This document shows, one piece after another, positions 1 to 9,191 of a stretch of DNA of 15,550 bases. Positions within the stretch are counted from its first letter, which is position 1. The number at the start of each line of letters is the position of its first letter. This stretch comes from an uncultured Dictyoglomota bacterium (GTDB lineage: Bacteria; Dictyoglomota; Dictyoglomia; Dictyoglomales; Dictyoglomaceae): assembly GCA_964654465.1 (NCBI GenBank), contig CAZZIO010000047.1, positions 1-15,550 of the forward strand, written 5' to 3'. The notes under the pieces were generated by a model, which saw only the letters and a program-made list of their open reading frames with translations, searched no databases and had not been told where the DNA came from. The position numbers and the translations under genes are program-made.

Positions 1-119
1 CTTTCTCTTGTCTTTTCCAAAGCCCTGTAATAACTTCCTATTCCTACACTAAAAAGTATAGCTATGACAACAATAACTATCATAATCTCAATAAGAGTAA
101 ATCCCCTATCTTTTCTCAT
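1..119 (-). CDS. Prepilin-type N-terminal cleavage/methylation protein (third, probably minor, pilin); 3' end outside window
   Basis: Not in the ORF track. Manual translation from ATG at 119 gives MRKDRG|FTLIEIMIVIVVIAILFSVGIGSYYRALEKTRE..., a class III signal (G|F..E5) followed by a hydrophobic helix. RBS GAGGTG at about 130-135. Confidence 0.9.
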   Translation of the reverse strand, partial: MRKDRGFTLIEIMIVIVVIAILFSVGIGSYYRALEKTRE

Positions 120-145
120 GATAGTTCTTCACCTCTTTTAAGGTT

Positions 146-182
146 AAAAAAAGGGGGCAAGATATGATATCTTGCCCCCTTT
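146..182 (-). terminator. Intrinsic terminator downstream of pilin 206..634
   Basis: Perfect 16-bp inverted repeat AAAGGGGGCAAGATAT (150-165) / ATATCTTGCCCCCTTT (167-182). On the minus strand the GC stem is followed by a T7 run (A7 at 146-152). Confidence 0.9.
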
Positions 183-205
183 AAAGATTATATCAGCCAA
201 TATTT

Positions 206-634
206 TTACTTAATTGTACCAGCACTTGAGACTGATATTACAACCTTTTGGTTATCTTTACCATATCCTGTGATAGTATAAGCTGTATTATCAGAAGTAA
301 CAGAATAAACAATCTTATATGCAGACTCACCACTATCATTGCTATTTGATGTAAAGCCATAAGGTGCATTTGTTGCTGGATTGTTTGGAAACTTTCCACC
401 TGGTAAGTAGTTACCTTGTGTTAGAGAGTAAACAAAAGAAGGATAATAACCATTGTTGTCTGTCGCATACATCTCAAGAGCTGTTTGAATAGTTTTTACT
501 GCAGATCTTACTGCAGACTCCCTTGCTCTTTCTGTTGCTCCCATAAAGTTTGGTAATGCTACCGCGGCTAAAATGGCAATGATCACAATAACTACCATCA
601 ACTCAATTAATGTAAAACCTCTCTCTTTACGCAT
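206..634 (-). CDS. pilA: Type IV major pilin / GspG-like pilin, copy 1 (142 aa)
   Basis: MRKERG|FTLIELMVVIVIIAILAAVALP class III signal; GspG-like ALEMYATDNNGYYP segment; RBS AAGGAGG upstream; lies next to pilB/pilT/pilC. Confidence 0.88.
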   Translation of the reverse strand: MRKERGFTLIELMVVIVIIAILAAVALPNFMGATERARESAVRSAVKTIQTALEMYATDNNGYYPSFVYSLTQGNYLPGGKFPNNPATNAPYGFTSNSNDSGESAYKIVYSVTSDNTAYTITGYGKDNQKVVISVSSAGTIK

Positions 635-671
635 AATCTAACCTCCTTTTTAATTAGTCTTTCTAACAAAT

Positions 672-699
672 ATTATACCCTAAAAAAATTTTTTTATTC
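672..699 (-). promoter_or_regulatory. Putative promoter of pilin copy 1 (GAATA-N14-GGGTATAAT)
   Basis: Minus strand reads ttatGAATAaaaaaatttttttaGGGTATAATa and ends 37 nt before the ATG. The 11-mer TAGGGTATAAT is repeated upstream of copy 2. Confidence 0.65.
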
Positions 700-741
700 A
701 TAAAAAATAAGTTTTTTAACAATATTTTTAATATTATTACA

Positions 742-788
742 AATAAAAAATAAAGGGGGAACCATATATAAAGGACTGTTCCCCCTTT
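742..788 (-). terminator. Intrinsic terminator downstream of pilin 817..1245
   Basis: Inverted repeat AAAGGGGGAAC (752-762) / GTTCCCCCTTT (778-788) with a 15-nt loop, followed on the minus strand by ATTTTTTATTT. Confidence 0.8.
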
Positions 789-816
789 GTAATTATTGAT
801 TTTTAAACAATTAAGT

Positions 817-1245
817 CTACTTCATAGTACCAGCACTTGAGACTTGTATTACAATCTTAGTATTATTTTTACCATATCCTGTGATAGTATAGGATGTATT
901 ATCAGTAGAAACAGAATAAACAATCTTGTATGCAGACTCACCACTATCATTGCTATTTGATGTAAAGCCATAAGGTGCATTTGTTGCTGGATTGTTTGGA
1001 AACTTTCCACCTGGTAAGTAATTCCCTTGTGTTAATGAATAAATATAGGCAGGATAATAACCATTGTTGTCTGTTGCATATATTTCAAGAGCTGTTTGAA
1101 TACTTTTTACTGCAGATCTTACTGCAGACTCCCTTGCCCTTTCTGTTGCTCCCATAAAGTTTGGTAATGCTACCGCGGCTAAAATGGCAATGATCACAAT
1201 AACCACCATCAACTCAATTAATGTAAAACCTCTCTCTTTACGCAT
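817..1245 (-). CDS. pilA: Type IV major pilin / GspG-like pilin, copy 2 (142 aa)
   Basis: Same class III signal as copy 1; 13 of 142 residues differ from copy 1; RBS AAGGAGG. Confidence 0.88.
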   Translation of the reverse strand: MRKERGFTLIELMVVIVIIAILAAVALPNFMGATERARESAVRSAVKSIQTALEIYATDNNGYYPAYIYSLTQGNYLPGGKFPNNPATNAPYGFTSNSNDSGESAYKIVYSVSTDNTSYTITGYGKNNTKIVIQVSSAGTMK

Positions 1246-1284
1246 ATTAATGTCCTCCTTCCCCCAATTTTACTTTCACTATAG

Positions 1285-1314
1285 ATTATACCCTACTCTA
1301 TTTATAAATTATGC
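1285..1314 (-). promoter_or_regulatory. Putative promoter of pilin copy 2 (GCATA-N16-GGGTATAAT)
   Basis: Minus strand reads ttatGCATAatttataaatagagtaGGGTATAATc and ends 39 nt before the ATG; the motif is shared with copy 1. Confidence 0.65.
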
Positions 1315-1334
1315 ATAAATTTACTTTAAAAAAT

Positions 1335-2042
1335 TTAAAACATTTCTCTTAATCTTTTTAAAGCTATCTTCAAAAGCCTTGAAACTTGAGACTGAGATAT
1401 TTTTAAAATTTTTGCTACTTCCATTTGAGTTAAATCTTGATAGAATATAAACTCAATAATTTTTCTTTGTATCTCTGGAAGTTTTGAGAGAGCCTGTTCA
1501 AGAGCAATTTTATCCTCTATAGGTAATTTAAAAGATTCTAATTTTTCTGCCCTAATCTTATCCATTTCAATTTCCATATCTTCCAAAGATATGGCCATTA
1601 TAGATTCTTTTATCCTAAAAAGTTCCTCAACAGCTTCTTTTTTTACATTCAAATACTGAGCTATTTCTTCCGTAGTAGGAGATCTATTTTCCTTTTCCCA
1701 TACCTCATTTATATACTTATCCATTTTATTGATTAATGTTTTTACGCTCCTTGGAATTTTTACCTTATCTATTTTATCTCTTAAATAATGTCTAATTTCA
1801 CCCAATACAAAATGGGATATATAGGTAGATAATTCACCTTTTTCTGGATCATAATTCTCTATAGCTTTAAGAAATCCTAAATAGCCTATCTGCACTAAAT
1901 CCTCTAATGGTTCACCATAAGATACAAACTTAGATGCCCAGTAATAAATGAGATCATCATATAGTTCAAGAAGAGCTTCTAAAGCCTTTTCATCCTTTTC
2001 CTTTTTATATCTTTCCCAGAGTATAATAGCAGAATTCTTCAT
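1335..2042 (-). CDS. RNA polymerase sigma factor, SigB/SigF/SigG family (235 aa)
   Basis: Region 2 DLVQIGYLGFLKAIENYDP..GEIRHYLRD; region 3 RSPTTEEIA; region 4 LTQMEVAKILKISQSQVSRL. ATGA overlap with the pilC stop at 2039-2042. Confidence 0.92.
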   Translation of the reverse strand: MKNSAIILWERYKKEKDEKALEALLELYDDLIYYWASKFVSYGEPLEDLVQIGYLGFLKAIENYDPEKGELSTYISHFVLGEIRHYLRDKIDKVKIPRSVKTLINKMDKYINEVWEKENRSPTTEEIAQYLNVKKEAVEELFRIKESIMAISLEDMEIEMDKIRAEKLESFKLPIEDKIALEQALSKLPEIQRKIIEFIFYQDLTQMEVAKILKISQSQVSRLLKIALKRLREMF

Positions 2043-3268
2043 TTTATGTATTGGAACATGGTAAATATAGGTAGATACAAAGCTATAAGCATACCACCTA
2101 CTATTCCACCTATAACTACCATCATGAGAGGCTCAATTAAAGATGTTAAACTTTCAACAGCAGCAGCAACTTCAGCCTCGTAAAATTCAGCTATCTTATT
2201 CAACATAGTCTCTAAGGAACCCGATTCTTCTCCCACTGAGATCATATGTATTACCATTGTTGGAAACACTTTTGTCTCTTTAAGAACAGGAGCTATTCTC
2301 TCACCTTCTCTTACCCTTACTCTAACTAAATCAATGGCTTTCCTATAGACACTATTTCCTGCTGTTTGTCCTGCTAATTGAAGAGCTTGTAGTATGGGAA
2401 CCCCTGTTCTTACTTGGGCAGAGAGGGTAGTTGCAAAATTAGCTATTGCTGTTTTTTGTATTAAACCGCCTAACACAGGTATTTTTAATAATATTTCATC
2501 TATTTTTTCTTTTATTTTAGGATTTTTCCATGCCCTAATAGCTGTCAAAACTAAAATCACAGTTGCCAAGAAAATAAGCAAGAAATTTTTCCTTATCATT
2601 TGGCTTAATCTAAGTAATACAGCTGTAGGTAAGGGCAACTGTGCACCCATACTTTCAAACATACCAGCAAAAATAGGCACCAAAAAAGTAAGCATTCCAA
2701 ACCCTGCCCCTATAGCTATTATTAATACAATAACAGGATAGGTCATAGCTGATTTTATCTTTCTTCTTAATTCTTGCTGCTTTTCTAAGGTTATTGCCAA
2801 TCTTTCTAAGGTCTCATCTAATGTTCCAGCTGATTCTGCAGCTCTTATCATATTTACATAAAGTGGAGAAAATACATTTGGAAAATTCCCAAAGGCATCA
2901 GATAAAGAACTTCCTTCGTCTACCATTTTTTGTACTTCTTTTAGTATTTGTCTCAAAGCTTTACTTTCACTTTGTTCTGATAATATATTCAAACAAGTAG
3001 AAAGAGAAAGACCTGCATTAATCATGGTAGCAAATTGTCGAGTAAAGATTGTAATATCTTTTAGTTTTACTTTTCCTCCTTTTTTTTCTTTTGGAGAAGT
3101 TAGGGAAAGAGTTAAAAAGGAGGATGTTCTTTTTTCTTCAATCCTAATAGGATATAAATTCATTCCTCTCAATTTCATAGCTAATTCTCTCATACTTTCT
3201 GCTTCTGATTCTCCAGTTACAAGCTCTCCCTTCATATTTCTTGCATGATAAACATATACCTTTGCCAT
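2039..3268 (-). CDS. pilC: Type IV pilus inner-membrane platform protein PilC (T2SS F family)
   Basis: FTRQFATMINAGL, KSAMTYP, VGEESGSLETML and IEP..LYLPIF motifs; three hydrophobic segments. Confidence 0.95.
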   Translation of the reverse strand: MAKVYVYHARNMKGELVTGESEAESMRELAMKLRGMNLYPIRIEEKRTSSFLTLSLTSPKEKKGGKVKLKDITIFTRQFATMINAGLSLSTCLNILSEQSESKALRQILKEVQKMVDEGSSLSDAFGNFPNVFSPLYVNMIRAAESAGTLDETLERLAITLEKQQELRRKIKSAMTYPVIVLIIAIGAGFGMLTFLVPIFAGMFESMGAQLPLPTAVLLRLSQMIRKNFLLIFLATVILVLTAIRAWKNPKIKEKIDEILLKIPVLGGLIQKTAIANFATTLSAQVRTGVPILQALQLAGQTAGNSVYRKAIDLVRVRVREGERIAPVLKETKVFPTMVIHMISVGEESGSLETMLNKIAEFYEAEVAAAVESLTSLIEPLMMVVIGGIVGGMLIALYLPIFTMFQYIK

Positions 3269-3275
3269 CTACCCC

Positions 3276-4358
3276 TCACCTCCTAATTTCTCCCCCCAAA
3301 AGACGCATTAATTCCTCTCTATTAACAGCCCTTTCAAAGGCTACTTCTTGAGTTATAAGACCTTTTTTAACAAGATCAGCGAGACTTTGATCCATAGTCA
3401 TCATTCCATATCTTCCACCTGTTTGTATTACACTATATATTTGAGGAGTTTTTCCTTCTCTAATGAGACTCCTCACTGCAGGGATACCAATAAGTACTTC
3501 AGTAGCAACTATTCTTCCAGTACCATCTTTTCTTGGGAGAAGCTGTTGAGAGATAATTCCTTGAATAACTCCAGAAAGTTGAAGCCTTATTTGTTGTTGT
3601 TGATGAGAAGGGAACTGGTCAACTATTCTTTCAATACTTTGAACCGCATCAACAGTATGTAAAGTTGCCATAACTAAGTGACCAGTTTCTGCTGCTGTGA
3701 TAGCTATAGCTGTGGTTTCCAAATCCCTCATCTCACCTACTAATATGACATCTGGATCTTCTCTTAAAGCTGATCTTAAAGCATTAGCAAAGGAATAGGT
3801 ATCACTTCCTACTTCTCTTTGATTCACAATAGATTTTTTATGAGTATGCAAATACTCTATAGGATCTTCTATTGTTATGATATGCCTGCTGAAATTTGAA
3901 TTGATATAGTCTATCATAGAAGCAAGAGTAGTAGATTTACCACTTCCTGTTGGACCCGTTACAAGTATTAATCCTCTGGGAAGGGCTGCAAGATCTTTTA
4001 AAATTAAAGGTAATCTAAGTTCTTCAATAGAAGGAATCTTCCAAGGAATTAATCTAAATACAGCAGCTAAGCTCCCCCTCTGCCAAAAAGCATTTACTCT
4101 AAATCTTCCTTCACCACTTATACCAACTGAAAAATCCAACTCTTTGTTTTCTTGAAGCTTCTGCTTTTGTTCTTCTGTTAAAAGACTAAAAACAAGATTA
4201 TAAGTAAGTTGGGGAGTTAAAACAGGATATTGAGTTTGAGGTATTAAATGCCCCTTAATACGGAAAACAGGTGGTACTCCAGAAGTTATATGTACATCTG
4301 AGGCTTCTTTCTGTAAAGCATTTTGTAGTATTTCAATAATAGAAATACTTTCTTTCAT
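3276..4358 (-). CDS. pilT: Type IV pilus retraction ATPase PilT
   Basis: Walker A GPTGSGKS, TIEDPIE, ALREDPDVILVGEMRD, AAETGHLV..TLH, and AVRSLIRE (variant of the PilT AIRNLIRE motif). Confidence 0.95.
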   Translation of the reverse strand: MKESISIIEILQNALQKEASDVHITSGVPPVFRIKGHLIPQTQYPVLTPQLTYNLVFSLLTEEQKQKLQENKELDFSVGISGEGRFRVNAFWQRGSLAAVFRLIPWKIPSIEELRLPLILKDLAALPRGLILVTGPTGSGKSTTLASMIDYINSNFSRHIITIEDPIEYLHTHKKSIVNQREVGSDTYSFANALRSALREDPDVILVGEMRDLETTAIAITAAETGHLVMATLHTVDAVQSIERIVDQFPSHQQQQIRLQLSGVIQGIISQQLLPRKDGTGRIVATEVLIGIPAVRSLIREGKTPQIYSVIQTGGRYGMMTMDQSLADLVKKGLITQEVAFERAVNREELMRLLGGEIRR

Positions 4359-4375: not shown

Positions 4376-6997
4376 TTAATCTGCAGCTGTGACCCTCATA
4401 ACTTCTTCCACAGTAGTAAAACCTCTAAGAACTTTACGCATTCCATCTTCCCTTAACGTTACCATTCCATATTTTCTTGCAGCCTCTTTTATAGTCTCAC
4501 GAGAAGCCTTTTTTAATACCAAATCTCTAATTTCATCATTCATAAGCATAATTTCATGAATAGCTGTTCTTCCCTTATAACCTTTGTTGTTACATCTGGG
4601 GCAACCCTGACCTTTATAAAAAGTAGCATTAGATAAATCTATGTCTCCTAAGGTTGCTTTTATAGCTTCTATTTCCTCCTTTGTAGGTTCATAAGGAGCC
4701 TTACAATAAGGACATACTGTCCTCACCAATCTTTGTGCTACCGCTCCAAGTAAAGAGGAACTAATCAAGAACGGTTCGATACCCATATCAATTAAACGGG
4801 TAACAGCCGATGGTGCATCGTTGGTGTGAAGGGTGGATAATACTAAGTGTCCTGTTAGAGCAGCCTGTATAGCAATTCTTGCTGTTTCTTCATCACGAAT
4901 CTCACCTACGAGCACCACATCTGGGTCTTGACGTAAAATAGATCTCAAGGCACTGGCAAAAGTAAGACCCGCTTTTGGGTTCACCTGCACTTGATGTATC
5001 CCTGGAAGCTGATACTCCACTGGATCTTCTACTGTTACTATATTAATATCAGGAGAATTTATCATATTTAAAGATGCATAAAGGGTTGTGGACTTACCAC
5101 TTCCTGTTGGACCTGTTACAAGTATAATACCATATGGTGTCTTTAACATTTTTAAATATCTTTCGTAATTATCTTCAGAAAAACCTAGACTCTCAAGAGA
5201 TAAAGATATAGCTCCTCTTCCTAAGATTCTCAATACCACCTTCTCACCAAAAACTCCAGGTAATGTAGAGACACGGAAATCATACACTTCTCCTTTTATA
5301 TTTGCTTTAATACGTCCATCTTGAGGTATTCTCCTCTCAGAAATATCCATATCACTCATAATCTTTATTCTTGAAACAACAGCTGCCTGAAATCTTTTTT
5401 GAATATACATAATTTCATGTAATACACCGTCTATTCTAAATCTTACCCTTACATTTCTTTCCAGAGGCTCTATATGGATATCACTAGCTCCTCTTTTAAC
5501 TGCATCAACTAAAATACTATTTACGAGCTTTGCTATAGGACCTTCCTCAGATGAAACTTCTTCTAAAGAAACCTCTTGATATTGAGTCTCTTCCTCTTCC
5601 TTCTGAACTATAATCTCTTCAAGTACTTTCTCTACCTCTTCACTACCCCAAATCTGATTAATAGCATCAATAAGTTCATTTCGTGGTACTATTACTGGTA
5701 TAACTTCATTTCTAGTTACCATTTTTAAATCATCGAGGGCTATTATATTTGCTGGATCTACAATTCCTACTATGATCCTCCCATCCTCCTTATAAAGAGG
5801 AAGTATTAAATTATCTCTCGCTTTTTTAGCTGTTATAAGTTTTGATAGATCTGGATCAATTTTTATCTCCTTTATTGATTTAAAAGGAATCCCTAATTGT
5901 TCACTTAATAACTTTGCAAGATCCATATCACTTAGAAGCTTTAGTTCTAAAAGTGCTTCTCCAAGCCTTATACCCTTTTTAGATGCAAGCATCAAAGCTT
6001 CATCTAATTGCTCTTTTGTAATTAAATTCTTTTCTAATAATATCTCACCAAGAGGCTTTCTTTTTGCAGGGGTTGATGTTTTCCTTAATGTTTTTTTCTC
6101 AGTAGTGGTTAAACTACTTTTAATACTTTCAATTATCTTATTGGCAAGATCCTTTTCTTTTTTCCTCTCTTCTTTCTCCTCGGTTTTTATCTCCTCTTTA
6201 ATTTCCTGTTGTATATTTTCTTCTTTAGTCTCTTCTTTGATCTCTTCCACAATTCCTATGCCTTCTAACTCAGAGAGCACATCAGTTATTGATTCTTCTT
6301 TAACATTAATCTCTTTAATATCTTCTTTAGGTATTTCTTCCTCAGATTTAGAAGGCATCTCTTCAATAATCTCTTCCTTGACATCCTCTCCCTTTAGCTT
6401 CTCTAACAATCCACCTTCAGGAACTAATTCTTCTACAAGCTTAGAAATTTCTATATCATTTATTGTTTCTATACCTATCTTTGATTCTTCCTTTACCTTA
6501 GTTTCAGAAACATCAGTTCTAGGAATCATTGACGATGTCAAAATTGAAGTTGTAGAACCTATTTCTTTCTTCTCAAATATATCTTCTGAAGATTCCTTAT
6601 CCACAACCTTTAAAAGATAAGGTTCTACTGAAAATCCTGTAAGCAATCTTATATCCTCAAGTGCTGTAGCTTTTACTGGTGGGAAGAAACCCACATGAAG
6701 CATTCTTTCTTCTAATTTAAGAGGAATAAAATTATGAAATTTCACTAAAAAAGGAGGAATAATCTTTAATGCGTCTTCATCAGGTTTAAATTCTTTTCCT
6801 TCAATAATTTTCCACCCTAAAATTTCTGATAATAAATCAGTAAGTTTATCTTTCGATATTAATCCCTCTTCCAAAAGAATTTCTTGTAGTTCTTTACCTT
6901 TTACTGAAGAAAGTAAGTTATCTAATAACCCCTTAGGGATAAGATTTCTCTCTCTAATAATCTCTAAAAGTTTCTCATTAATATTAGGAGAATCCAT
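4376..6997 (-). CDS. pilB: Type IV pilus assembly ATPase PilB (GspE/PulE family) with extended N-terminus (873 aa)
   Basis: ASDIHIEP, PQDGR, GPTGSGKS, LRQDPDVVLVGEIRD, tetracysteine CPYC..CPRC; MshEN-type repeats at aa ~313-367; RBS AAGGAGGAG. Confidence 0.95.
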   Translation of the reverse strand: MDSPNINEKLLEIIRERNLIPKGLLDNLLSSVKGKELQEILLEEGLISKDKLTDLLSEILGWKIIEGKEFKPDEDALKIIPPFLVKFHNFIPLKLEERMLHVGFFPPVKATALEDIRLLTGFSVEPYLLKVVDKESSEDIFEKKEIGSTTSILTSSMIPRTDVSETKVKEESKIGIETINDIEISKLVEELVPEGGLLEKLKGEDVKEEIIEEMPSKSEEEIPKEDIKEINVKEESITDVLSELEGIGIVEEIKEETKEENIQQEIKEEIKTEEKEERKKEKDLANKIIESIKSSLTTTEKKTLRKTSTPAKRKPLGEILLEKNLITKEQLDEALMLASKKGIRLGEALLELKLLSDMDLAKLLSEQLGIPFKSIKEIKIDPDLSKLITAKKARDNLILPLYKEDGRIIVGIVDPANIIALDDLKMVTRNEVIPVIVPRNELIDAINQIWGSEEVEKVLEEIIVQKEEEETQYQEVSLEEVSSEEGPIAKLVNSILVDAVKRGASDIHIEPLERNVRVRFRIDGVLHEIMYIQKRFQAAVVSRIKIMSDMDISERRIPQDGRIKANIKGEVYDFRVSTLPGVFGEKVVLRILGRGAISLSLESLGFSEDNYERYLKMLKTPYGIILVTGPTGSGKSTTLYASLNMINSPDINIVTVEDPVEYQLPGIHQVQVNPKAGLTFASALRSILRQDPDVVLVGEIRDEETARIAIQAALTGHLVLSTLHTNDAPSAVTRLIDMGIEPFLISSSLLGAVAQRLVRTVCPYCKAPYEPTKEEIEAIKATLGDIDLSNATFYKGQGCPRCNNKGYKGRTAIHEIMLMNDEIRDLVLKKASRETIKEAARKYGMVTLREDGMRKVLRGFTTVEEVMRVTAAD

Positions 6998-7529: not shown

Positions 7530-8656
7530 CTTTTATAACCTTGAGCTTTTAAATGCTCTTCATAGGTTTTCGAAAAGGTATGAGTTCCATCATTATTTGA
7601 AACAAAAAAAAGATAATCTCCTTTAGGTTGTAATATTGCCTCCAAAGATTTTAAAGATGGAGAACAAATAGGAGTAGGAGGAAGACCATAATATTTATAC
7701 GTATTATAAGGAGAATCAATCTCCAGATCTTTGTATAAAAGAGGATTTTTCTTAAAATCATATAAATACTCTACTGTAGCACAAGATTGAAGCATATATC
7801 CTTTCTTCAAACGATTAATAAAGACACCAGCAATTAAAGGTCTCTCTCTGTCTATCTTGGCTTCTTTTTCCACAATAGATGCCAATATTATCCATTCATT
7901 AAAACTTAAACCAATTTTTTTAAGATCTTCTTTATAATCAGGAAAATTAGATAGGATCTGCTTAAAAAATTCTTTCAAAAGAATTTCTATAATCTCTTTC
8001 TCTTTAATGTCTTTTGGTAAAAAATAAGTAGAAGGAAATAAATAACCTTCTAATGACATGGGTATTTTACCCCCAAAAAATTCTTTATACTCTTTTAAAA
8101 AAGACGAAACATAATTAGAATCAGTACAATATTTAAGAAAAAGATCTTTTGAAATATTTAAGCGTTCTTCAAGAATTGCCCCTATCTCTTTTAAAGATAC
8201 TCCTTCAGGTATTGTTATCTTTATACTTAAATTTTCTCCATTTACTAATTTATTCACCACATGAACAAGTGAATAGGATGGAGATAATTTATAGTACCCT
8301 TTTTTAATGTTCCTCTCTCTCCCAATAAGCTTTGTATACAATATAAATATTTCTTTAGATTTTATAATCCCTTTTTCATATAATATATCAGCTACTTGGG
8401 AGAGTGAGGAACCCTCTTGAATATATACTTCTACATCACTATTAGTCTTAAACTTTGGGACGAAAAGTATTACAAAAACAAATAATAAAAATAAAATTAG
8501 AGAAAAGGAAAAGAATATAAGAATTTTTTCTAATTTACTATTCCTCTTCTCCTTTTTCTCAATCTTCTTCTTCCAAATCCTCTTCTTCCCAATCTTCGTC
8601 TTCCCATTCTTCCTCTTCTTCCAGAGCTTCCACAACTTTTTCAAATTCATCATCAT
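7526..8656 (-). CDS. mltG: Endolytic transglycosylase MltG (YceG family); start codon uncertain
   Basis: Single N-terminal TM helix; TIPEG, LEGYLFPSTY, LASIVEKE (catalytic Glu), SPYNTY..GLPPTPI and YLFFV motifs. Confidence 0.92.
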   Translation of the reverse strand: MMMNLKKLWKLWKKRKNGKTKIGKKRIWKKKIEKKEKRNSKLEKILIFFSFSLILFLLFVFVILFVPKFKTNSDVEVYIQEGSSLSQVADILYEKGIIKSKEIFILYTKLIGRERNIKKGYYKLSPSYSLVHVVNKLVNGENLSIKITIPEGVSLKEIGAILEERLNISKDLFLKYCTDSNYVSSFLKEYKEFFGGKIPMSLEGYLFPSTYFLPKDIKEKEIIEILLKEFFKQILSNFPDYKEDLKKIGLSFNEWIILASIVEKEAKIDRERPLIAGVFINRLKKGYMLQSCATVEYLYDFKKNPLLYKDLEIDSPYNTYKYYGLPPTPICSPSLKSLEAILQPKGDYLFFVSNNDGTHTFSKTYEEHLKAQGYKR

Positions 8657-8876
8657 CTTCTATTTCTTCCAAAGCATCTATATAGAGTTCACCATCTTTT
8701 TCTGAAAGCCTGCAACGATATACATAAATTTCATCCATATCTTCCGCATCTTTTGGTGTTAGAAGAACATACGTCTTATCATCTACCTCCACAAAATCTC
8801 TAATCAAATACTCATAAGTATTTCCATCCTCGTCTTCTAAAATTATAACTTCCTCGTCAAACATTTTATCTGACAT
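8559..8876 (-). CDS. DUF1292-like acidic protein (105 aa; start corrected from 9047)
   Basis: MSDKMFDEEVIILEDEDGNTYEY...YVLLTP...IEDDDEFEKV pattern; RBS GAGGTG at 8883-8888; typical position upstream of mltG. The longer ORF-track version runs through the tRNA. Confidence 0.8.
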   Translation of the reverse strand: MSDKMFDEEVIILEDEDGNTYEYLIRDFVEVDDKTYVLLTPKDAEDMDEIYVYRCRLSEKDGELYIDALEEIEDDDEFEKVVEALEEEEEWEDEDWEEEDLEEED

Positions 8877-8918
8877 TATGAACACCTCTTTTTTAAAATT
8901 TAAAGAGGGGCTAAGGAT

Positions 8919-9006
8919 TGGTGCCGGAGGCCGGACTCGAACCGGCACGGGGATTGCTCCCCACTGGATTTTAAGTCCAGTGCGTCTGCCATTCCGCCAC
9001 TCCGGC
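8919..9006 (-). tRNA. tRNA-Leu (anticodon TAA), 88 nt, CCA encoded
   Basis: GCCGGAG acceptor stem pairs with CTCCGGC-A-CCA; anticodon arm CTGGA-CTTAAAA-TCCAG; long variable arm GGGGAGCAATCCCC; T-arm GCCGG-TTCGAGT-CCGGC. Confidence 0.97.
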
Positions 9007-9037
9007 GGTAATTCCTCATACCTCTCTTTGGTTAAAA

Positions 9038-9066
9038 AGTGTATCATAAGTTTTTATATTAGTAAA
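9038..9066 (-). promoter_or_regulatory. Putative sigma70-type promoter for tRNA-Leu and the downstream operon
   Basis: TTTACT (9066-9061), 17-nt spacer, TACACT (9043-9038), with an extended -10 TG. Confidence 0.55.
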
Positions 9067-9115: not shown

Positions 9116-9191
9116 GGCGGTGTAGCTCAGCGGTTAGAGCACACGGTTCATAACCGTGGTGTCCAGGGTTCGAATCCCTGCACCGCCACCA
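9116..9191 (+). tRNA. tRNA with anticodon CAT, most likely elongator tRNA-Met, 76 nt, CCA encoded
   Basis: GGCGGTG/CACCGCC acceptor stem; GCTC/GAGC D-stem; CACGG-TTCATAA-CCGTG anticodon arm; CAGGG-TTCGAAT-CCCTG T-arm. G1-C72 is paired and there are not three consecutive G-C pairs in the anticodon stem, so it is not an initiator. G4-C69/G5-C68 argue against Ile2. Confidence 0.93.

Follow-up and report, generated by a model that had tools for sequence, protein, structure and literature searches.

Transcription of pilin genes is controlled by sigma-54 and PilR in proteobacteria and by SigF in cyanobacteria. To our knowledge, almost nothing is known of pilin control in the deep-branching and uncultured phyla, and we know of no cyanobacterial sigF that lies inside a pilBTC operon. 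In Bacillus subtilis the gene of sigma-D is found at the end of a machinery operon, and the flagellin gene has its own sigma-specific promoter. In a literature search, thin on subscription journals, the titles and abstract openings listed were on cyanobacterial SigF, on sigma-54/PilR and on unrelated topics, and none of them named a sigma gene inside a pilus operon. The subject of this study is a gene in that position. It is carried by a 15,550-nucleotide (nt) stretch of DNA from an uncultured bacterium of the Dictyoglomota (GenBank assembly GCA_964654465.1, contig CAZZIO010000047.1), referred to below as the window, in which a sigma factor is encoded immediately after the pilB-pilT-pilC genes of a type IV pilus and upstream of two major pilin genes. 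With a probability of about 0.7, judged from sequence comparison, this protein is a pilin-dedicated group-3 sigma factor made together with the pilus motor, in the manner of cyanobacterial SigF acting on pilA1.

Several described systems bear on this locus. In Synechocystis sp. PCC 6803 the group-3 factor SigF was reported as the only sigma factor to transcribe pilA1, whose promoter has TAGGC at -32 and GGTAA at -12; the recognition of pilA1 by SigF was described as stringent, and GGGTAAG was the pattern used to seek further SigF targets (PMC2532724). That report bears out the premise of the original prediction made on this DNA, namely that Synechocystis SigF controls a pilin gene. The B. subtilis sigma-B promoter is given as GTTTAA-N15(+/-2)-GGGTAT (PMC9847131). 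For sigma-F a -35 element GTATA and a -10 element GGNAANAMTR are listed, and for sigma-G a -35 element GNATA and a -10 element CAWAMTA (PMC3416734).

The window is the entire contig C47 of the source genome (G000, whose contigs carry C-numbers), which measures 1.91 Mb, has 31.6% G+C and is 99.97% complete. The closest named relatives of the sigma protein are found in Dictyoglomus thermophilum and D. turgidum (76-77% identity), and the source genome is Dictyoglomus-like. Read along the minus strand, the genes are arranged as tRNA, a DUF1292-type gene, mltG, yqeG, pilB, pilT, pilC, sigma, two pilin genes and a partial third pilin-like gene. The sigma gene, the two pilin genes and their promoter elements are the following.

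1335..2042, minus strand: group-3 (SigB/F/G-like) sigma factor, 235 amino acids; the ATGA at 2039-2042 contains both its start codon and the stop codon of pilC
817..1245, minus strand: pilA1, major pilin, 142 amino acids; N_methyl (42.9 bits) and T2SSG matches; N-terminus MRKERGFTLIELMVV
206..634, minus strand: pilA2, second major pilin, 142 amino acids; profile matches; 91% identical to pilA1
1285..1293, minus strand: -10 element GGGTATAAT of the pilA1 promoter; transcription predicted to begin near 1276-1278, some 7-9 nt further downstream
1310..1314, minus strand: -35-like GCATA of the pilA1 promoter, with an N16 spacer to GGGTATAAT
672..680, minus strand: -10 element GGGTATAAT of the pilA2 promoter; transcription predicted to begin near 663-665
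695..699, minus strand: -35-like GAATA of the pilA2 promoter, with an N14 spacer to GGGTATAAT

The 11-mer TAGGGTATAAT is found on the minus strand at 1285-1295 and at 672-682, respectively 39 and 37 nt before the ATG codons at 1245 and 634. It is the longest identical run in the alignment of the two pilin upstream regions, the remainder of which consists of scattered matches in AT-rich DNA. The -35-like five-mers are embedded in TTATGCATAA (1309-1318, pilA1) and TTATGAATAA (694-703, pilA2). The positions of the motif, its distances to the ATG codons, the G(A/C)ATA elements with their spacers, the poor alignment of the flanks and the overlap of the pilC stop with the sigma start had all been put forward in the original prediction and were confirmed on the minus strand. 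A simple sigma-70 scan gave 9 promoter-like sites, as compared to 10.2 in shuffled sequences, with none at the pilin promoters.

As the last gene of the pilB-pilT-pilC motor operon, the sigma gene would be translated by coupling to pilC; its product, together with core RNA polymerase, would recognize G(A/C)ATA-N14-16-GGGTATAAT ahead of each major pilin gene. We infer both that the sigma factor reads these promoters and where transcription starts. A sigma factor made with the machinery and reading the pilin promoters would tie bulk pilin synthesis to expression of the assembly machinery, a logic that would match that of sigma-D/FliA with flagellin and of cyanobacterial SigF with pilA1.

The likeness to cyanobacterial SigF consists of a group-3 sigma factor without region 1 that would drive a major pilin gene, and of a -10/-12 element that begins with GGGTA (GGGTAAG in the published pattern, GGGTATAAT here), the latter being a resemblance of sequence only. 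The two systems differ in the upstream element, reported as TAGGC at -32 in Synechocystis and G(A/C)ATA here, and in autoregulation, which is reported for SigF, whereas no GGGTA-type promoter was found on the minus strand upstream of the window's sigma gene or operon. The window protein also scores 151.5 bits with NF005644, the model named SigF, which is under its cut-off of 261 bits. By analogy, the locus resembles that of sigma-D/FliA and flagellin in that the sigma gene ends a machinery operon and the gene of the filament subunit has a promoter of its own. The organelle and the promoter sequence are different, however, neither flagellin nor FlgM was found in the source genome, and the FliA/WhiG model (TIGR02479) gives 107.5 bits against a cut-off of 189.6. 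The published sigma-F and sigma-G elements (GTATA or GNATA at -35, GGNAANAMTR at -10) fit G(A/C)ATA...GGGTATAAT with one mismatch. Sigma-B contributes the -10 element GGGTAT, and the GGGTA start is common to the reported SigB and SigF elements and the Dictyoglomus motif; the reported sigma-B -35 element, GTTTAA, is absent at the window's pilin promoters. Unlike these Bacillus systems, the source genome yielded no SpoIIAB/RsbW kinase or STAS partner.

Conservation and specificity of the pilin promoters

By their sequence pilA1 and pilA2 are tandem duplicates, since 129 of 142 residues are identical. The two window copies of the motif could therefore be alike from duplication alone, and it is conservation in orthologous loci that makes their likeness meaningful. 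Ten other Dictyoglomaceae genomes (G001-G010) were compared. The sigma gene is present in nine of them, the exception being G002, which is 86% complete. The order pilT-pilC-sigma is found in all eight Dictyoglomaceae loci that were fetched, and the 4-nt overlap of pilC and sigma in seven of these eight as well as in the window. A major pilin gene follows immediately after sigma in six of the eight loci; in G005 an assembly gap begins just past the promoter, and in G006 a different gene is next.

Thirteen major-pilin promoters from three genera were compared (two each from the source genome, G001 and G004, one each from G003 and G005-G010). The -10 nine-mer is GGGTATAAT in 10 promoters, TGGTATAAT in two (pilA1 of G003 and of G004) and TAGTAAAAT in one (G009). 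The five-mer G[AC]AT[AG] precedes the -10 element by 13-16 nt in 12 of the 13, the exception being G006 with TAATA. The spacers between the two elements are not conserved. In G006 the pilin gene is 13 kb away from the sigma gene, yet retains GGGTATAAT. Leaders of both the pilA1 and the pilA2 type are present in G001 and in G004, which makes the pilin duplication older than these species and means that the motif was kept in both copies. Over the 11 family genomes the pattern GMATR-N13-17-GGGTATAAT has 12 matches, nine of them at sigma-linked pilins, and its reversed-pattern control has 11 in all. The motif is thus no commoner genome-wide than expected by chance, but is concentrated at the sigma-linked pilins.

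One observation concerns the pilA2 spacer (681-694, minus strand), which is the A7T7-like tract AAAAAAATTTTTTT. The same spacer is A/T-rich yet interrupted in G001 and G004, so that a slippage switch is improbable. The pilA1 element TTATGCATAA is a perfect palindrome and suggested the site of a dimeric factor. This candidate was dropped because the flanks are non-palindromic in the other 12 promoters.

The housekeeping promoters of the source genome are of another type. Of the 649 TATAAT sites in its intergenic DNA, 127 have TGn in front, 16 have GGn and only four have GGG. The 110 intergenic TGnTATAAT sites with a downstream gene, when aligned, have T at -17 and A or G at -16 and carry virtually no information around -35. 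The local housekeeping promoter is therefore an extended -10 element (T-R-TGnTATAAT) with no detectable -35. The five-mer G[AC]AT[AG] with a spacer of 14-16 nt is found at one of 126 intergenic TGnTATAAT sites and at four of 643 intergenic TATAAT sites when no TGn is required, two of these four being the pilins. These counts set the pilin motif apart from the housekeeping type.

In the whole genome (1.91 Mb) GGGTATAAT occurs 29 times, and G[AC]ATA-N14-16-GGGTATAAT twice, in both cases at the pilins. In intergenic DNA the strict two-part motif marks solely the two pilins, and two relaxed versions add a few sites whose -10 element is incomplete; with this motif no other candidate target of the sigma factor was found in the intergenic DNA of the source genome. 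The pilin motif is not a chance feature. An internal control is provided by the pilin gene of a second pilus-like cluster that has no sigma gene (C35:45524-45928). It has the standard TGATATAAT, as does its counterpart in G002.

The sigma factor and its relatives in other phyla

The window sigma factor consists of Sigma70_r2 (residues 25-90), r3 (103-155) and r4 (184-233) domains and has no region 1.1, which is the architecture of group 3. The best NCBIfam family is TIGR02980 (SigB/F/G) with 178.5 bits, followed by the SigF model, the sporulation SigF and SigG models, SigB, and then FliA/WhiG. The assignment to the SigB/SigF family made in the original prediction stands as regards regions 2, 3 and 4 and the best match, and does not hold at the family's own cut-off of 234.35 bits; the sporulation and stress equivalog models all score far under their cut-offs. 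The neighbours of the gene are pilC and pilA, in place of the anti-sigma kinase and STAS partner that characterize SigB/F/G. The nearest solved chains, 1l0o_C (99.4 bits) and 8x6g_H (92.6 bits), both rank ahead of FliA (68.8 bits) and SigA. TIGR02980 is matched at E <= 1e-20 (best 7.5e-61) by 17 of 17 sampled sigma factors of the clade described below, the bit score being that of the window protein alone. In a protein atlas the matches were confined to generic sigma clusters of Bacillota and Atribacterota. The proposed system is closest to SigF acting on pilA1, and the window protein lies below the curated cut-offs of SigB/F/G, SigF and FliA.

The other sigma-like genes of the source genome encode RpoD (C32), a divergent RpoD-like protein (C12), a truncated RpoD-like protein (C63) and a 152-amino-acid protein of the extracytoplasmic function (ECF) type (C64). 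The truncated gene (C63:1140-2120, locus L004) encodes a 326-amino-acid protein that breaks off after region 2, with remnants interrupted by stop codons behind it, and is possibly a broken or duplicated sigma gene. No STAS domain (PF01740, PF13466), FlgM, sigma-54 DNA-binding domain or flagellin was found in the source genome at E <= 0.01. The best HATPase_c_2 match there, looked for as a kinase of the RsbW/SpoIIAB type, is a 290-amino-acid CBS-domain protein in an unrelated cluster. The absence of an anti-sigma or anti-anti-sigma gene next to the sigma gene, remarked upon at the outset, thus held, and with four family models none was found genome-wide either. As neither a partner-switching nor a FlgM-type anti-sigma was found, control probably lies in how the operon itself is transcribed and translated.

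When one genome per species was scanned, 80 loci with relatives of the window sigma factor were returned, three in Dictyoglomaceae and 77 elsewhere. In at least 55 of the 77 the fetched flanks contain a prepilin-type gene or a homologue of pilB, pilT or pilC, a lower bound because some contigs are short, and many of these loci follow the order pilB-pilT-pilC-sigma-pilA. By record title they belong to Armatimonadota, Atribacterota (often with two tandem sigma genes), Vulcanimicrobiota/Eremiobacterota, Bipolaricaulota, Actinomycetota, Binatus and others. GGG[TA]ATA[ATC] occurs eight times in the 5.8 kb that lie up to 200 nt upstream of prepilin genes, compared to 115 times in the remaining 1.54 Mb (both strands), which is an enrichment of about 18-fold. 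GTCT(A/C) or GTCCG precedes each of the eight prepilin-linked sites by 14-16 nt. A two-part pattern has 31 matches in these loci, 11 of them with a prepilin gene directly downstream, and in several of the pilin promoters the last -10 base is C or A, unlike the TATAAT of housekeeping sigma factors. Beyond the family, related sigma factors of other phyla are likewise located in pilus clusters, and the pilins there have a similar promoter, GTCT(A/C/G)-N14-16-GGG(T/A)ATA.

In the Atribacterota loci (L042, L050, L052, L058, L063, L074 and others) two paralogous sigma genes stand in tandem after pilC. There GTCTAAAAA-N-GGGAATAATATAAA is repeated ahead of several pilin genes and also at sites without a called gene within 300 nt. 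The GC-rich Actinomycetota loci L098, L104 and L106 share a conserved CACGATAATGT(A/G)(T/C)GTTATGTA(A/T)AG about 60-90 nt past the sigma stop codon, and no recognizable pilin gene was found after this element in these three loci.

A FastTree tree was computed from 93 rows, and the 88 sigma factors of this kind all fall in one clade with a support of 98, inside which the Dictyoglomaceae rows are nested. Two sigma factors encoded beside RsbW- and STAS-like genes, one FliA-like sigma factor and RpoD fall outside it. The tree was made by a quick method with few outgroups, from rows picked by similarity to the window sigma factor. The recognition helix of region 4.2 reads SQ(S/G)QVS in Dictyoglomaceae as compared to mostly S(Q/P)(R/K)xVS elsewhere, and there is a hint that this shift parallels the shift of the -35 element from GTCTx to G(A/C)ATA.

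Taken together, the comparative evidence supports the interpretation of the sigma-pilin link. It also inclines us, by a modest degree over even odds, towards a broader proposal. According to it, the window protein would belong to an old family that spans several phyla (Dictyoglomota, Atribacterota, Vulcanimicrobiota/Eremiobacterota, Armatimonadota, Actinomycetota and others) and whose sigma factors would be dedicated to type IV pili as the counterpart of FliA/sigma-D. The members of this family would be encoded with the motor genes and read GnnTA-N14-16-GGG(T/A)ATA on pilins; in Dictyoglomaceae the -35 element (GTCTA to GAATA) and the region 4.2 helix would have changed together; and, with no classical anti-sigma, pilin output would be set by expression of the machinery operon. 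A sigma factor that forms part of the pilus motor operon, and whose promoter at the pilins is short and easily recognized, would allow the major pilin and the pilus regulon to be found by one simple rule in thousands of metagenome-assembled genomes. It would also supply a sigma/promoter pair of thermophilic origin that is compact and orthogonal, and a parallel for pili to the flagellar FliA hierarchy. The same locus is found in cultured Dictyoglomus (D. thermophilum and D. turgidum), which makes the idea directly testable.

Alternative explanations of the pilin promoters

Several observations weigh against a dedicated pilin sigma factor. The -10 hexamer of the pilin promoters is a perfect TATAAT with G at -14. 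The caveat originally attached to this core stands, as the element differs from the local extended -10 only at -15, where it has G instead of T. The pilA1 promoters of G003 and G004 carry the canonical TGGTATAAT (TGG), and TAGTAAAAT of G009 is without GGG. A third intergenic TAGGGTATAAT, at C35:36295, is located upstream of genes for a DUF4900 protein and pilin-like proteins beside the second pilus-like cluster, and lacks the -35 five-mer. The orthologous positions keep GGG in three of 10 genomes and have a TGn-type -10 in others, so GGG and TG can interchange at this site. Folding revealed no hairpin or terminator between the sigma gene and pilA1, and read-through could therefore also express pilA1. 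The other-phylum loci were selected by similarity to the window sigma factor, and the co-variation of region 4.2 with the -35 element is a hint because it concerns a single lineage. Finally, the RNA data, three metatranscriptome runs that contain parts of the window, are assembled contigs of relatives that are 88-95% alike, one of which has a single pilin gene; starts, ends and strand are unreadable in them.

The most serious alternative, though an unlikely one, is that the housekeeping sigma factor reads the pilin promoters as an off-consensus extended -10, that G(A/C)ATA is the site of an activator or repressor or an UP-like element, and that the sigma factor of the operon has other targets. 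The perfect hexamer with G at -14 is what such a reading would expect in a genome whose housekeeping promoters require just T-R-TGnTATAAT, and the two pilin promoters of the 13 with TGGTATAAT and the alternation of GGG and TGn among relatives at the DUF4900 operon point the same way. However, GGG is retained in 10 of 13 promoters though TGn is the local optimum (127 intergenic sites compared to four). The five-mer is asymmetric except in the window's own copy and is thus unlike the site of a dimeric factor, and in the other phyla the same pair of genes has a GTCT -35 element and a GGG(T/A)ATA whose last base varies, unlike TTGACA/TATAAT. The source genome, moreover, offered no other candidate target that the operon's sigma factor might serve.

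It is more doubtful still that both sigma factors start at the same -10, the housekeeping one giving basal transcription and the pilus one a boost, so that the latter would tune pilin expression and not switch it. The motif does join housekeeping -10 features with GGG and the -35 five-mer, and the TGG variants of G003 and G004 retain GAATA at the same spacing, but Synechocystis pilA1 is reported as recognized by SigF only (PMC2532724). That the shared 11-mer is a functionless leftover of the tandem pilin duplication, as the 91% identity of the pilins might suggest, is very improbable and is disfavoured by the orthologue comparison, because the duplication predates the species that have both leader types (G001 and G004), the motif was retained while the spacers diverged, and single-copy pilins of two other genera also carry it.

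The pilin-dedicated sigma factor remains the best explanation for the two window promoters. The site at C35:36295 was not adopted as a third member of its regulon, given the missing five-mer and the GGG kept in just three of 10 orthologous positions.

Neighbouring genes and the second pilus-like cluster

The remaining features of the pilus locus are the following.

4376..6997, minus strand: pilB, assembly ATPase, 873 amino acids; T2SSE 495 bits, type_IV_pilB 686.5 bits (cut-off 675.65)
within 4376..6997, minus strand: N-terminal extension of pilB with MshEN domains and the NF053729 cyclic di-GMP (c-di-GMP) motif at residues 315-367
3276..4358, minus strand: pilT, retraction ATPase, 360 amino acids; TIGR01420 pilT_fam 508 bits (cut-off 319.1)
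2039..3268, minus strand: pilC, platform protein, 409 amino acids; T2SSF 221.5 bits, PilC models 420 and 379 bits (both below their cut-offs of 700)
745..785, minus strand: terminator-like hairpin (755-785) and U run 3' of pilA1; -18.3 kcal/mol, z -2.89
143..182, minus strand: terminator-like hairpin (150-182) and U run 3' of pilA2; -24.5 kcal/mol, z -4.61
1..119, minus strand: third pilin-like gene, 5' part only, running off the contig; begins MRKDRGFTLIEIM

The third pilin-like gene continues on contig C45 (C45:23-454, 143 amino acids), where the N-terminus and leader are identical. Upstream of this gene, past the pilA2 stop codon and ahead of the terminator hairpin, a canonical housekeeping-type TGATATAAT is found at 187-195 (minus strand), and a transcript begun there would run straight into the hairpin. 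Both hairpins were revealed by folding; a simple terminator scan returned none, owing to its loop limits (the loop of the pilA1 hairpin is 15 nt). Rfam matched only two tRNAs in the window, with no riboswitch in the pilin leaders. The tRNA genes are at 8922-9006 (minus strand) and 9116-9188 (plus strand). The listed open reading frame 8559-9047 overlaps the former, so the true start of the DUF1292-type gene must be further downstream.

PilB (4376-6997, minus strand) has about 310 additional N-terminal residues ahead of two MshEN-type stretches and the c-di-GMP-binding motif. This motif is also present in the PilB of the second cluster on C35, and pilus assembly may respond to c-di-GMP at the protein level. 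The second pilus-like cluster (locus L129, C35:35800-49000, minus strand) contains pilB and pilC, a GspG-like pilin and several genes of minor pilin-like type, besides a weak match to pilM. It is faced by a four-gene operon for the DUF4900 protein (570 amino acids) and pilin-like proteins, which is headed by TGTTATAAT with TAGGGTATAAT following 12 nt later.

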